Sequence record: KX009778
Direction: 5' to 3' (one strand)
Source of the DNA: Escherichia phage UFV-AREG1
DNA: 64,000 nucleotides
This document shows, in pieces, positions 2,459 through 39,434 of the stretch (positions within the stretch are counted from its first letter, which is position 1; each line of letters opens with the position of its first letter). The notes under the pieces are model-generated. The model worked only from the letters and a program-made list of their open reading frames with translations. It ran no database searches and was not told where the DNA came from. The translations under genes and the position numbers were made by a program.

Positions 2459-4278
2459 TACTGACTCATCCATTCTTTGCGAAGGTCAGCATTATCTCCC
2501 ATGAGCATTTCAAAAAGCTCTTTCCAGTTCTCAGGAAGTTTAACAACATCATATACTGGATTTTGAATCATCTCACGATATTCAGATTTTTCTAAAGAGC
2601 CAAGTCCCTTAATATAACGGATGCTATGTTTAGGCAGAGCATCTTTGGCGCTCTCATATTCAGCGACTGTATAAAACCATTCTTGTTTTTTACCGACCTG
2701 AGCGATGATTACAGGAGTTTTGACAAAGCGAATTCTTCCTTGTTCAAACAGTTCTGGCCAATTACTAAAAAATCCGAGCAGAGAAGGATAAATGCTTCCT
2801 AGACCATCATGGTCAGCATCAGTCATAATAGCAATATTATGATAATTCAAGTTTTCAGCTTTTTCACCAAGAACTAGACCAGTGATTGCGCAAATATCAA
2901 ATAGTTCTTTGTTTTTAAGCATATCAGCATATGACATACCCCAACTGTTGAGAACTTTACCACGCAATGGATAACCACCATGAAGTTCTTTATCACGAAC
3001 ATCAATAAGATATCCGATAGCCGAATCACCCTCAGTCAGGAAAAGAGTAGTGTCAGCATCTTTACCACAAAGATTCGCTTTAATATGTTTATGAACCTTA
3101 GCTTTAGAAGCCTTTTTAGCTGCTTTAGTTTCTGCTGCCTTTTCTGCCGCCAATTTACGAGCCAAGGCAGCTTCAATAATTGGCATTAAAATTGCTTCAT
3201 TATTTAAAATAGCACGTGAAATCTTTTTAGCATCAAGCTGAATATGACTACGGATTTCACCAAATGGAGAAGTCAGACGCTCTTTAGTTTGAGAGTCAAA
3301 TCGCATGTTTTTCATATCACGAACAAACATAACGATAGTCAAACATTCTTTAACACGTGCTTTAGTTACATCAATTTTGAATTTACGTTTGATTTGTGGA
3401 ATAAGGTCTTCACAAATATCATCCATAACGCAGTCAATGTGATGGCCACCATTCTTAGTGTGAATGTTATTCACATAAGTTAATTGACGAAATCCATCCG
3501 GTGAACGACCAACCGCAATAGAACAATTTTCTTGTTCTTGAACAATAGCATGTTCATCATACTGTCGTGCATATTTCTTAAAATTGCCCTGAACCTTTTT
3601 ACCATTAAAGGTAAATTGAATATCAGGATAAACAACAGCAAGTGTCTGGAGACGATCTAGTGTAATGTCAAGATAAACTTGAGATAGCTCATTAGTTTCA
3701 AATGACATAAAATCAGGAATGAAAGTAACACGAGTTCCTTTCCATTTTCCAGGAATAGTTTCCCAGGATTTATTTTCCATGCCATTTGAACAACGAACTA
3801 CAATATTATTTTGACCATCGCCAGTTTCACCGACAAACATCACAGAAAAAATGTTAGTTAAACTAGAACCAACACCATTCATACCACCGGTGACGCGTTC
3901 TTTATCATCACCAAAGTTACCACCTGCTTTTGGAATAGTCCAAGCAGCAACTGGGCCAGGAATTTCTTCACCGGTAGGTGTTTTAACCATCGCTTGTGGA
4001 ATACCGCGACCGTTATCTTCAACTGTTACCTGATTATTTTTAATGGTAACATTAATTTTATTTGCGAATTTAAACTTAGTACGAATACCTTCATCTACTG
4101 AGTTATCGATAATTTCATCAATAAGCTTAACAAGACCAGGTACATACTGAACACTTTCCCATTTACCAAACAGAAAGCGCTCATGCATTTCATTAGCTGA
4201 AGAGCCAATGTACATGCCGCTACGCTTTTTGATATGTTCAATATCGCTCAGAATTTTAATTTCATTCTTAATCATCAC
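2458..4278 (-). CDS. 39: DNA topoisomerase II large (ATPase) subunit, uninterrupted gp39 plus gp60-equivalent
   Basis: 606 aa; GyrB-like ATPase N-terminus MMIKNEIKILSDIEHIKKRSGMYIGS; C-terminal part continues in frame with sequence that T4 encodes in separate gene 60. Confidence 0.9.
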   Translation of the reverse strand: MMIKNEIKILSDIEHIKKRSGMYIGSSANEMHERFLFGKWESVQYVPGLVKLIDEIIDNSVDEGIRTKFKFANKINVTIKNNQVTVEDNGRGIPQAMVKTPTGEEIPGPVAAWTIPKAGGNFGDDKERVTGGMNGVGSSLTNIFSVMFVGETGDGQNNIVVRCSNGMENKSWETIPGKWKGTRVTFIPDFMSFETNELSQVYLDITLDRLQTLAVVYPDIQFTFNGKKVQGNFKKYARQYDEHAIVQEQENCSIAVGRSPDGFRQLTYVNNIHTKNGGHHIDCVMDDICEDLIPQIKRKFKIDVTKARVKECLTIVMFVRDMKNMRFDSQTKERLTSPFGEIRSHIQLDAKKISRAILNNEAILMPIIEAALARKLAAEKAAETKAAKKASKAKVHKHIKANLCGKDADTTLFLTEGDSAIGYLIDVRDKELHGGYPLRGKVLNSWGMSYADMLKNKELFDICAITGLVLGEKAENLNYHNIAIMTDADHDGLGSIYPSLLGFFSNWPELFEQGRIRFVKTPVIIAQVGKKQEWFYTVAEYESAKDALPKHSIRYIKGLGSLEKSEYREMIQNPVYDVVKLPENWKELFEMLMGDNADLRKEWMSQ

Positions 4279-4330
4279 TTATCCTCGTTTGGTTTCGGGA
4301 ATATTATACTCCAGTAATCATAAAGCTAAA

Positions 4331-4342
4331 GGCCCGAAGGCC
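4331..4342 (-). terminator. GC stem-loop with CGAA/UUCG tetraloop (terminator or RNA stability element)
   Basis: GGCC-CGAA-GGCC directly after lipoprotein gene stop. Confidence 0.45.
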
Positions 4343-4344
4343 TT

Positions 4345-4614
4345 TTATTTAAAACGGATAGTCGAATCCTTGAAGAATAAACCAGAACATACTGTTCCTT
4401 CTACTTTCTGCCCAGTAGGTCCAACAGCACGAAATCCAGTGTGTTGGAAATCATTTTCAGAGCAACCGAACCAGTTATATCCAGTGATTTCAATATTAGT
4501 AAAACCGCTTGAAGATAAAACTTTGGTTGCATTATCAGCATCAGTACATCCTACTAAAGATACTGCTAATACTAATGCTGCAATAGAACGATTAATATAT
4601 TTCATAATTTTCAC
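4345..4614 (-). CDS. putative lipoprotein
   Basis: 89 aa; signal peptide followed by lipobox LVGC (MKIMKYINRSIAALVLAVSLVGCTD). Confidence 0.55.
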   Translation of the reverse strand: MKIMKYINRSIAALVLAVSLVGCTDADNATKVLSSSGFTNIEITGYNWFGCSENDFQHTGFRAVGPTGQKVEGTVCSGLFFKDSTIRFK

Positions 4615-4982
4615 TTAAATTTAATGGCTTGAAGAAGACTAATAATTCTCAAGCGACTTCTTTCATCTTTAACTGTAAAAGAAAGAGGGTCACCAGATTT
4701 CATAGTAATAGTACATTCAAAATCAAAATCTTCGGGAACTTCTTCGAATAGGTCAAATTCTTCATCATAAATTAGAACATTACTCTGAAAACTGTGAAGA
4801 ATTTTTCCATCATTTCCAGATGCTGTACTAATCATTGTAACATTATTACCTTTCATATCTTCAACGATAAATTCGCTTGTAGATATTACATTACTAATAG
4901 AACCATTCCTATAAATAGCAGAAAATAGATATTTCTTTTCTTCACCTTCGCGAATACGATACTTCTTACCGATTTTAAACAT
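4611..4982 (-). CDS. hypothetical protein
   Basis: 123-aa ORF, start/stop overlap with neighbours (ATGA-type coupling). Confidence 0.5.
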   Translation of the reverse strand: MFKIGKKYRIREGEEKKYLFSAIYRNGSISNVISTSEFIVEDMKGNNVTMISTASGNDGKILHSFQSNVLIYDEEFDLFEEVPEDFDFECTITMKSGDPLSFTVKDERSRLRIISLLQAIKFK

Positions 4983-14870: not shown

Positions 14871-15128
14871 TTAACCACCTACACCAGGTGTAGGTGTAAC
14901 AGTCCAAAGACCTTCATTAGCAGTGATCCATTCAGTACGCTGATTTTCTTCATATACTGTAGAATATGCTGCTTTTTCAGAAGGGAATGTCTGATAATGA
15001 GCACCAGAAATTTTGTGAACATCAGAATAAAGAGGGAAAGCTACAGAAATTTCTTTACCCTGAATTGTACCACCATCAACTGCTTGGTCAAATGTTTTGA
15101 TATTAACATAACCGCGAGTACTAGCCAT
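14871..15128 (-). CDS. soc: small outer capsid protein Soc
   Basis: 85 aa; MASTRGYVNIKTF...SVAFPLYSDVHKISGAHYQTFPSEKAAYSTVYEENQRTEW matches T4 Soc as recalled; late promoter TATAAATA upstream; stem-loop downstream. Confidence 0.9.
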   Translation of the reverse strand: MASTRGYVNIKTFDQAVDGGTIQGKEISVAFPLYSDVHKISGAHYQTFPSEKAAYSTVYEENQRTEWITANEGLWTVTPTPGVGG

Positions 15129-15144: not shown

Positions 15145-15354
15145 TTAAATTACATGATTATTTATAATAAATTCTCGCGGAACGTTAAAATACCCGATTT
15201 TAGTTAATATAACAACATCACCGTTAATAATTACCGGAGAATAATCTTCTGGAGCATTAAATTTCCAATGGGCTCTAATATTATATCCATCAGAACCAAA
15301 TGCTCGACTAGCCGGTCTCCCGGCTTTTTGCCATGCATAAAAATCAAATTTCAT
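15145..15354 (-). CDS. hypothetical small protein
   Basis: 69-aa ORF. Confidence 0.45.
   Translation of the reverse strand: MKFDFYAWQKAGRPASRAFGSDGYNIRAHWKFNAPEDYSPVIINGDVVILTKIGYFNVPREFIINNHVI
15159..15166 (-). promoter_or_regulatory. late promoter TATAAATA for soc
   Basis: exact TATAAATA on minus strand about 30 nt upstream of soc ATG. Confidence 0.55.
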
Positions 15355-15545
15355 TTTGAATGCTCTATAATTAATTTTAAAGCTTCTTCACTGACAAAAA
15401 TTTCGTCAGGACCTTCTATAACTTCAACCATACGAAGTTGATTAGTTAAGAGCTCACACACGAGCTCTTTGTTATAATCTTTAAATAGCTGGTCAATACG
15501 TTTCTTATGGGCTTTCTTAAGCTGGCGCTTATTTAAACGAGCCAT
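15351..15545 (-). CDS. hypothetical small protein
   Basis: 64-aa ORF. Confidence 0.45.
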   Translation of the reverse strand: MARLNKRQLKKAHKKRIDQLFKDYNKELVCELLTNQLRMVEVIEGPDEIFVSEEALKLIIEHSK

Positions 15546-16063: not shown

Positions 16064-16134
16064 TATTTTTCCTTTCAATTCATGGGTTAGTAGATTAATT
16101 ATACAATAAATATATAAAGCAATAAGGAGGACAT

Positions 16135-16335
16135 ATGGTACAAAAATTAATGGCACTTGTTAATGCCATAAAAGGTAATAAAAAACGTATAGCTTTTACT
16201 ATTTCTGCTATGGTAGGAATTTTACTCTGGAACTTTATTTTATCACCAATTGCAATTGCGCATGGTGTTAATATTCCAGTAGTTACTCTTGATACATTTG
16301 TAGATTTAGCATTTGCTTTAGTTGGGTTGATTTAA
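16135..16335 (+). CDS. plus-strand hydrophobic small ORF (possible membrane peptide)
   Basis: 66 aa; AAGGAGG 4 nt upstream of ATG; lies in the 56-61 intergenic interval and overlaps the gene 61 stop by 4 nt. Confidence 0.3.
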   Translation: MVQKLMALVNAIKGNKKRIAFTISAMVGILLWNFILSPIAIAHGVNIPVVTLDTFVDLAFALVGLI

Positions 16336-17528: not shown

Positions 17529-17885
17529 TTAACCTCTATTCATAAAAGCATTAAAAATTTGGTCATCAATAGAAGGTGCAGCGATATTTTCTGCATCATT
17601 TAGCAAATCATTAATTTCATCAGATAGCATAACACATGTACCTTTATTTCCTGTAATTGTTACTGCGCAATTACGAACGTTTTCTTTATTAAATTTTAGG
17701 TTAATATTTTCGTAATGAAAATCCTTTAATGCTGAATATATTTTTAAAATAAAATTGTCTTTTACTACAATAAACCCAACCTCACTATTAAAACGTGGTT
17801 CATGGAAACTGTAATAAACCTTTTCATCTATAAAATCGTATGAAATTTTTTCCATTTTTAAATATGAAAATTCAGAACTATACAT
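17529..17885 (-). CDS. hypothetical protein
   Basis: 118-aa ORF. Confidence 0.5.
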   Translation of the reverse strand: MYSSEFSYLKMEKISYDFIDEKVYYSFHEPRFNSEVGFIVVKDNFILKIYSALKDFHYENINLKFNKENVRNCAVTITGNKGTCVMLSDEINDLLNDAENIAAPSIDDQIFNAFMNRG

Positions 17886-18251: not shown

Positions 18252-18509
18252 TTATTTTAAAACTTCTGCGTAATCACATGTTACAAACTGTTTCTCTAGC
18301 TTAACGATCTTACGAAAATACCTTTTACACTGACGAATCTGCCTCTTCGTAGGGCGAACAGCAAACTTAATAAATTCCACTCGACCAAATGGAGGGTTTT
18401 CTTCTGTTGGAATATCTAACACCAATTCCCACGTATCTGCAATAAGTGCTTTGAATTGCGTATTTTTCCTGACGTTATACGGAGTAGGTTTAAATAAAAC
18501 AATATGCAT
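18252..18509 (-). CDS. hypothetical protein
   Basis: ORF 18252-18551; start moved to MHIVLFKPT preceded by GAGGA, abutting dmd stop. Confidence 0.45.
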   Translation of the reverse strand: MHIVLFKPTPYNVRKNTQFKALIADTWELVLDIPTEENPPFGRVEFIKFAVRPTKRQIRQCKRYFRKIVKLEKQFVTCDYAEVLK

Positions 18510-39151: not shown

Positions 39152-39434
39152 GAGAAATAATTCCTTGGTAAGCCCAATAAGGAGGATTAACAGAATCCTC
39201 ACCAGAGTTTTCTTCAGGAAAATAAACCTGGATAACAAATCCAGACGCATCAAAGGTAAAATAAACCGTAGGTAGTTCACCTAACAATTCGGCACGAGTA
39301 TTAATTTCTTCGAGATCTCGTTCACGTCCAGCCCAAAAACTAGGATTTAGACTACATTCGTAAAAATAATAGTCATTACCGAACATATCAAAACCCTTCC
39401 AACTCTCTACCACATACCGCTCAAAACTAATCAT
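39123..39434 (-). CDS. hypothetical protein
   Basis: 103-aa ORF. Confidence 0.45.
   Translation of the reverse strand: MISFERYVVESWKGFDMFGNDYYFYECSLNPSFWAGRERDLEEINTRAELLGELPTVYFTFDASGFVIQVYFPEENSGEDSVNPPYWAYQGIISRGTKLELKE

Follow-up and report, generated by a model that had tools for sequence, protein, structure and literature searches.

We analyzed the interval between gene 56 and gene 61 in a 64,000-nt stretch of DNA from Escherichia phage UFV-AREG1 (sequence record KX009778; the whole stretch is called the window below), and in particular a 66-aa open reading frame (ORF) that lies in this interval. The window is a segment of a Tequatrovirus (T4-like) genome, and its first 25 kb are ~96-97% identical to FelixPlatter, slur07 and similar phages. 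The interval, from 16064 to 16331, is bordered by the genes for dCTP/dUTP pyrophosphatase (dCTPase; gene 56) and DNA primase (gene 61) (Table 1). A first-pass annotation of this DNA had put about 270 bp between the gene 56 start and the gene 61 stop and had described a hydrophobic plus-strand ORF of 66 aa with an AAGGAGG ribosome-binding site. The measured distance is 268 bp, and the ORF and its AAGGAGG are present where they had been placed. The ATG is at 16135 and the TAA at 16333-16335, on the strand opposite not only to genes 56 and 61 but to all the early and middle neighbors of the ORF. The ORF had also been said to overlap both the gene 61 stop and the promoter region of gene 56. This was borne out: the convergent stops of the ORF and gene 61 share TTAA at 16332-16335, an overlap of 4 nt, and the signals 5' to the ORF lie across the MotA/-10 module of the gene 56 promoter. 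The leader and predicted MotA-type middle promoter of gene 56 fill 16064-16121. The 268-bp interval is fully occupied by tightly packed, ordinary T-even signals and one real gene.

Table 1. Coordinates in the window of the 66-aa ORF, its signals, and the flanking and overlapping features.
Feature	Position	Strand	Basis and remarks
66-aa gene for a predicted small membrane protein, phrog_2024 (RB32ORF030w in RB14/RB51)	16135..16335	+	family match; purifying selection; structure and hydropathy predictions
Late-promoter-like box AATAAATA	16105..16112	+	T4 late consensus TATAAATA with A at -13; 7 of 8 bases match
Shine-Dalgarno sequence AAGGAGG	16124..16130	+	4 nt before the ATG
Gene 56, dCTPase, 172 aa	15545..16063	-	phrog_173 (E = 2.4e-44); annotation of relatives; left border of the interval
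Predicted MotA-type middle promoter of gene 56	16098..16121	-	pattern scan: MotA box TGCTTTA (16121..16115), 11-nt spacer, -10 TATAAT (16103..16098)
Terminator-like hairpin and T-run downstream of gene 61	16150..16169	-	scan; within ORF codons 6-12
Gene 61, DNA primase, 342 aa	16332..17360	-	phrog_47 (E = 1.1e-106); annotation of relatives; tail-to-tail with the 66-aa ORF

Conservation of the 66-aa ORF and evidence for coding

The 66-aa ORF is a positionally fixed gene of the enterobacterial T-even group. Residues 2-66 matched positions 1-65 of the 65-position profile phrog_2024 (E = 1.5e-31). Using tblastn, we found the ORF in 691 phage records, full length in 685 of them; ~500 of the copies were from Tequatrovirus (at least 90% identity) and ~190 were from Mosigvirus and Gaprivervirus (44-56% identity). 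In nearly all of the records listed, the ORF adjoins the primase gene. A profile search of 1.84 billion representative proteins gave only eight cluster representatives with E < 1e-3, all of them proteins of T4-like phages. We looked up four distant members (P0077-P0080), whose counterparts are in T4-like phages of Klebsiella, Citrobacter, Salmonella and Enterobacter. Each of the four is encoded on a T4-like contig, and neither the site nor the strand differs: the gene is flanked by the gene 56 side and the primase gene. Across the tblastn search of phage records and the profile search together, the family was not detected outside the enterobacterial T-even group. The arrangement in the window, on the strand opposite to gene 61 and tail-to-tail with it, recurs in phage G4507, T4, Mosigvirus and the distant contigs, and one extra gene separates the ORF from gene 61 in Gaprivervirus and at locus L024. 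Conservation in relatives had been set beforehand as the test on which the ORF could fail, and the ORF was kept everywhere we examined.

T4 itself has the ORF. The first-pass annotation had proposed that the ORF is present instead of genes found in T4, and this is incorrect because T4 carries the same ORF beside gene 61. The T4 copy (NC_000866.4, 17738-17938, plus strand; 4239-4439 in locus L002) encodes a product identical at 64 of 66 residues, is preceded by AAGGAGG, and has the same 4-nt overlap with gene 61. The order in the T4 record NC_000866 is 56, dam, a 309-bp unannotated gap, and 61, and the plus-strand ORF is within the gap. No coding sequence is annotated for it in the T4 reference record or in the T2 records LC348380 and NC_054931. 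In automatically annotated records of other T4 isolates and most relatives, the product is called 'hypothetical protein', and the protein from the window is identical to entries deposited from many phages. The phrog_2024 (RB32ORF030w) proteins of Tequatrovirus, including RB68_032 and YP_010070410.1 of G4507, are the same protein, at the same position by gene 61 and on the same strand, and we found no differences. The product is already catalogued as a hypothetical protein, and in this respect the finding is ordinary.

Based on sequence comparisons, we conclude that the 66-aa ORF is a genuine protein-coding gene under purifying selection. The ratio of nonsynonymous to synonymous substitution rates (dN/dS, Nei-Gojobori) was 0.12-0.35 in the informative pairs; synonymous sites were saturated between genera. 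The variable columns of the alignment numbered 45, 21 and 56 at codon positions 1, 2 and 3, respectively, and two natural variants (P0025 and P0069) have in-frame deletions of three residues. Frame +1 was free of stops in all 21 distinct sequences, and each of the other frames was interrupted in at least some lineages. Sixteen residues were invariant across 13 diverse members, including W32-N33-F34, P38, G44, P48, V56-D57 and A61. A chance ORF in AT-rich DNA is rejected by the conservation and the codon pattern. We also rejected conservation forced by the overlap with gene 61: the overlap is just 4 nt, and the ORF persists beyond an intervening gene. That gene, in Gaprivervirus, encodes a homing endonuclease and is located between the ORF and gene 61. 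Because the ORF is intact there, its conservation is not a side effect of the overlap with the primase gene.

One database member is likely to be an artifact. P0076 (61 aa) differs from the Tequatrovirus protein almost only by changes of the C-to-T type (A to V, T to I, P to L, S to F, and H to Y), as if it had been assembled from reads converted chemically or by an enzyme; it is probably no natural variant.

Predicted product and expression of the ORF

The product is probably a small inner-membrane protein with its N terminus in the cytoplasm (N-in/C-out) and its C-terminal helix at the periplasmic face. The predicted features of the 66-aa protein are an N-terminal amphipathic helix, a basic cluster, a transmembrane helix (WNF...P...HG), and a short, acidic, hydrophobic C-terminal helix. 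The AlphaFold2 model, made from an alignment of 13 sequences, has helices at 2-12, 16-42 and 52-63 (mean pLDDT 75.6), and the most hydrophobic stretch of 19 residues is 23-41. In each of the eight members examined, four to six Lys or Arg residues precede the transmembrane helix (two to four of them in the immediately preceding eight residues) and zero to two follow it; the C-terminal part has one or two conserved acidic residues in these same members. The protein from the window has no Lys or Arg after the first transmembrane helix and ends ...ALVGLI. According to the positive-inside rule, basic residues are on the cytoplasmic side of the membrane. The distribution of Lys and Arg together with this rule favors a single span in the N-in/C-out orientation.

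We searched for relatives of the product beyond its own family. There was no Pfam hit at E <= 10, no NCBIfam hit for any of 13 family members (including no hit to a holin model), no match of the profile to sequences in the Protein Data Bank (PDB), and Foldseek comparison of the AlphaFold2 model with predicted viral structures returned family members only. There is a general likeness to the T4 antiholin RI, to Imm, and to class II holins and pinholins (S21-68): all are small, with one or two hydrophobic segments and a transmembrane region that is partly rich in Ala, Gly and Ser, and late expression and an envelope location are presumed for the product of the ORF. The product matches none of these proteins in sequence, profile or fold in the searches described above, and it lacks both the charged C-terminal tail typical of holins and the sizeable periplasmic domain of RI.

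The signals upstream of the ORF are best read as those of late, gp55-dependent transcription. T4 late promoters consist of an 8-bp box used by the gp55/gp33/gp45 system, with no requirement for a -35 element. The heptamer ATAAATA is found 22-41 nt upstream of the ATG in every lineage, within flanks that otherwise could not be aligned. Three forms of the 8-mer were seen: AATAAATA (the window and Mosigvirus), GATAAATA (T4 and loci L012, L013, L020 and L024), and CATAAATA (Gaprivervirus and loci L019 and L023). In Gaprivervirus, position -13 of the box overlaps the neighboring MotA box. All of the homologous loci have GGAG or GGAGG upstream of the ATG. At locus L024, a canonical plus-strand intrinsic terminator (9-bp stem, TTCG loop, six T) spans the stop codon of the ORF. 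A scan of the interval for sigma-70 promoters gave 5 hits, with 5.1 expected.

The heptamer is rare in the window, and the copies on the minus strand are in front of ORFs. Counting both strands, there were 10 copies, compared to 40.1 +/- 5.2 expected, a four-fold depletion. They are at 4911, 6960, 16106, 60938 and 63490 on the plus strand and at 15159, 43381, 56830, 63081 and 63094 on the minus strand. All five minus-strand copies precede ORFs, and four of the five have a clear ribosome-binding site of the GGAG type; the ORFs in these four cases are soc (at 15128) and ORFs of 157, 70 and 164 aa. On the plus strand, a copy is found at the relevant upstream distance for just 0.19% of positions. 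The preference for late, gp55-dependent transcription comes from the conserved Shine-Dalgarno sequence, the conserved heptamer, the depletion of the heptamer and its placement before ORFs, and the terminator at L024. The other four plus-strand copies have no convincing ORF downstream; from their sequence and position, they may be antisense late promoters.

The arrangement resembles that of T4 late genes located in early regions, such as soc, in that a late-type box is a short distance upstream of a strong Shine-Dalgarno sequence and an ATG. In the window, TATAAATA is 38 nt before the soc ATG, and this promoter is annotated P(L) in X01416. Apart from such sites, the box is strongly avoided in this genome, as the depletion of the heptamer shows. 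Unlike soc, which is on the same strand as its neighbors, the 66-aa ORF is opposite to the strand of its neighbors.

We consider it very likely that the 66-aa ORF is an expressed protein-coding gene with late-type control. As we picture it, the ORF would be transcribed late in infection by gp55-containing RNA polymerase from the variant late promoter AATAAATA at 16105-16112. This promoter and the MotA-dependent middle promoter of gene 56 would be back-to-back, the box being nested within the spacer of that minus-strand promoter. Translation would start at the strong Shine-Dalgarno site. The amphipathic N-terminal helix and the Lys/Arg cluster would probably face the cytoplasm, a single transmembrane helix would carry the invariant W-N-F...P motif, and the ~25 C-terminal residues, with the conserved G...P...[DE] segment, would probably be at the periplasmic face. 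Late in infection, the product would most likely work at the cell envelope; candidate processes include the timing or inhibition of lysis, exclusion, and membrane integrity. We hold any one specific role with much lower confidence.

Several observations weigh against this account. Some close pairs of sequences have a dN/dS of 0.46-0.73, values that come from very few substitutions. The antisense frame (16135-16332, minus-strand frame 2) is also free of stops in Tequatrovirus and Mosigvirus; it has one to three stops in most Gaprivervirus and distant lineages, and the open antisense frame is most likely a by-product of hydrophobic codon composition. The spacing between the Shine-Dalgarno sequence and the ATG is 4 nt here, compared to 6 nt in T4. 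The box has A at -13 in the window, and the consensus T at this position, present in the soc promoter, is absent in every lineage. Because of this, the late box may be weak. A(-13) is the commonest natural variant among T4 late promoters, found at 9 of 50 sites (PMC2988020). The C-terminal 20 residues of the product have a mean Kyte-Doolittle value of 1.99, hydrophobic enough for a second membrane segment, and judged by hydropathy the protein may be a two-segment membrane hairpin. In the full-text literature on T4 small ORFs, ribosome profiling, mapping of transcription starts, and late promoters, we found no mention of the ORF or of ORF030w. Transcription, translation and membrane location of the ORF are all read from sequence, and the role at the envelope is drawn solely from the predicted membrane location and the predicted late timing.

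The same properties could also fit a holin, or a pinholin-like hairpin of two segments that permeabilizes the inner membrane, but we think this improbable. The product is small, hydrophobic and probably late, the hydrophobic C-terminal 20 residues, which contain two conserved acidic residues, could be a second, pore-lining segment, and in Mosigvirus the first hydrophobic segment has many Ala, Gly and Ser residues. One family member, UniProt A0A482MZV5, is named 'Holin'. This label, on one entry versus hundreds with 'hypothetical protein', is unsupported, and no holin model in Pfam or NCBIfam matches. The C-terminal helix in the AlphaFold2 model has 12 residues, too short to span the membrane, and the protein ends ...VGLI, with no charged hydrophilic tail. 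There is no linkage to an endolysin or spanin gene, as the neighbors encode dCTPase and primase, and these phages already have the holin T, which, like the spanins, is annotated elsewhere in the genome of a relative. A different and rather doubtful possibility is that the product belongs, throughout the lineage and so far unrecognized, to the late envelope program of T-even phages. It might modulate, or be a partner in, the holin/antiholin, spackle/immunity or membrane-integrity systems, with its late promoter perhaps serving as a temporal switch at the promoter of the neighboring early or middle gene. If this were true, the omission of the gene from the T4 reference annotation would explain why decades of T4 genetics missed it.

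Two other explanations place the function in the DNA or RNA rather than in the protein. Late plus-strand RNA, or plus-strand transcription itself, might matter as antisense into gene 61 or by blocking the gene 56 middle promoter in a late shut-down. The late box is within or directly beside the minus-strand promoter in several lineages, we found no plus-strand terminator downstream of the ORF in the window, so that transcripts would run antisense into gene 61, and T4 has several sites where the two strands are known to be transcribed at different times (PMC2988020). Nonetheless, the codon-position pattern, the dN/dS below 0.35, the in-frame indels and the invariant residues all reflect selection on a protein, and the strong Shine-Dalgarno site is conserved. 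Antisense read-through into gene 61 is not conserved, because another gene or a plus-strand terminator is between the ORF and gene 61 in some lineages. A role for the RNA or for promoter interference could coexist with a role for the protein and cannot explain the selection on the protein; in place of a protein function we regard it as very improbable. We give almost no credence to the ORF being a non-gene whose conservation comes from minus-strand elements (the gene 61 terminator, the 56/dam promoter, or sequence related to an origin). A minus-strand terminator-like hairpin and a promoter do overlap the 5' end of the ORF, the T4 and T2 reference annotations omit it, and it is a short ORF in AT-rich sequence that has many chance ORFs. 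However, the minus-strand elements extend no more than about 35 nt into the ORF. Outside Tequatrovirus the hairpin is not conserved, yet the frame, length (60-68 aa) and motifs of the ORF persist down to ~27-33% identity with synonymous sites saturated. Third codon positions are the most variable, and gene callers and PHROGs recognize the ORF. A protein-coding gene, probably late, is the best-supported interpretation of the ORF.

Absence of dam and other features of the region

The interval is shorter than that of T4 because dam is absent, consistent with the earlier statement that the T4 interval is longer. Of the additional T4 genes that the first-pass annotation had named, dam is indeed between 56 and 61 in T4; the origin-associated gene did not hold up. 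A missing origin gene 69 is rejected, since the translation of 'gene 69' in X01416, a record from 1984, is gp56 run into SegF, making this gene an obsolete reading. In T4, oriA is annotated within the 5' end of gene 56.

As had been claimed, there is no Dam-like ORF in the window. T4 Dam used as a tblastn query against the window gave a best E of 0.32, with no methylase ORF bearing DPPY, and the pattern [DNS]PP[YFW] occurred only as NPPY at 39188 and NPPF at 18398, both isolated and in unrelated short ORFs. A dam gene elsewhere had been raised as a possibility. The same query against the remaining ~100 kb of FelixPlatter, the closest relative, whose sequence overlaps the window end, found no homolog (best E = 0.78). 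The positive controls for these searches, T4 and L012, scored 515-527 bits. We reject relocation of dam within the window or within the FelixPlatter genome.

The absence of dam is a cassette polymorphism. T4-type Dam (at least 90% identity) is encoded in 182 records of the phage collection and the contiguous 56-ORF-61 layout is present in 293, making the short layout without dam the commoner one. The T4 dam cassette occupies the slot between gene 56 and the small ORF, the same chromosomal slot as here; dam is absent from this slot in the window and from the whole genome of FelixPlatter. Elsewhere the slot contains dam together with a 186-aa ORF (L012), a homing endonuclease gene (Yersinia phage fPS-2), or two or three small ORFs (L019 and L024), and it is empty in Mosigvirus, Gaprivervirus and L020. 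The flanks are not those of a clean deletion relative to T4: the promoter segment 16088-16123 is unlike either T4 flank and matches the fPS-2 module. We read dam as an optional cassette in a variable slot and see no need for a special explanation of its absence. Replacement of dam by the 66-aa ORF is rejected, as T4 has both.

Two features of this region deserve mention. Homing endonuclease genes flank the small ORF differently in different phages: on the side toward gene 61 in the Gaprivervirus type, and on the side toward gene 56 in fPS-2 (L006, 2080-2847; L027, 1-330). The endonuclease gene of fPS-2 uses the promoter and leader module that drives gene 56 in the window. The 186-aa ORF at L012 (841-1401, minus strand; IMG/VR UViG_2974787500_000001) is directly upstream of dam, with its stop overlapping the dam start by 1 nt, a layout found in some Tequatrovirus. 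Its product has a weak, sub-threshold likeness to the restriction endonuclease DpnII (16.8 bits, compared to a cut-off of 23), a similarity that suggests that it may be a dam-linked nuclease.

The minus-strand elements that overlap the signals and the 5' end of the 66-aa ORF have counterparts in other phages. The predicted MotA-type promoter is identical to a module annotated 'predicted middle promoter' in fPS-2, where it drives the homing endonuclease gene, and X01416 has a mot-box annotated for the T4 equivalent, P(M)16.53. The stem of the terminator-like hairpin is weak, with 8 pairs, 3 of them GC. A 'terminator' is annotated at this place in fPS-2, and the hairpin is present in T4 and not evident in Mosigvirus or Gaprivervirus.

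Small ORFs are found on both sides of the interval. Between soc and gene 56 (15145-15545, minus strand) there are two, of 69 aa (Pfam DUF7422, E = 1.2e-46) and 64 aa, at the position where T4 has the homing endonuclease gene segF. Between 61.1 and sp (17529-17885, minus strand), there is a 118-aa ORF whose match to Pfam AdfA (anti-DarT factor A) is confined to the C-terminal half of the profile (positions 113-211 of 211). At this position T4 has the 208-aa ORF 61.2, and phage G4507 has ORFs of 118 and 210 aa. By this partial match, the phage may carry a truncated or paralogous form of AdfA.

Implications for T4 and its relatives

The finding exposes a gap in the most widely used reference annotations: those of T4 (NC_000866) and T2 lack a gene that is conserved, fixed in position in ~900 T4-like genomes, and under purifying selection. 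Transcriptomic, proteomic and knock-down studies that use the T4 or T2 reference annotation skip the ORF because the annotation omits it. With the question of dam closed, dam being an optional cassette, what is still of interest is the absence from the T4 reference of a conserved gene, probably late and on the opposite strand, that is predicted to encode a membrane protein. As a probably late gene nested among early replication genes, on the opposite strand and with a predicted promoter that overlaps that of its neighbor, it would be a handy test case for promoter interference in T4.

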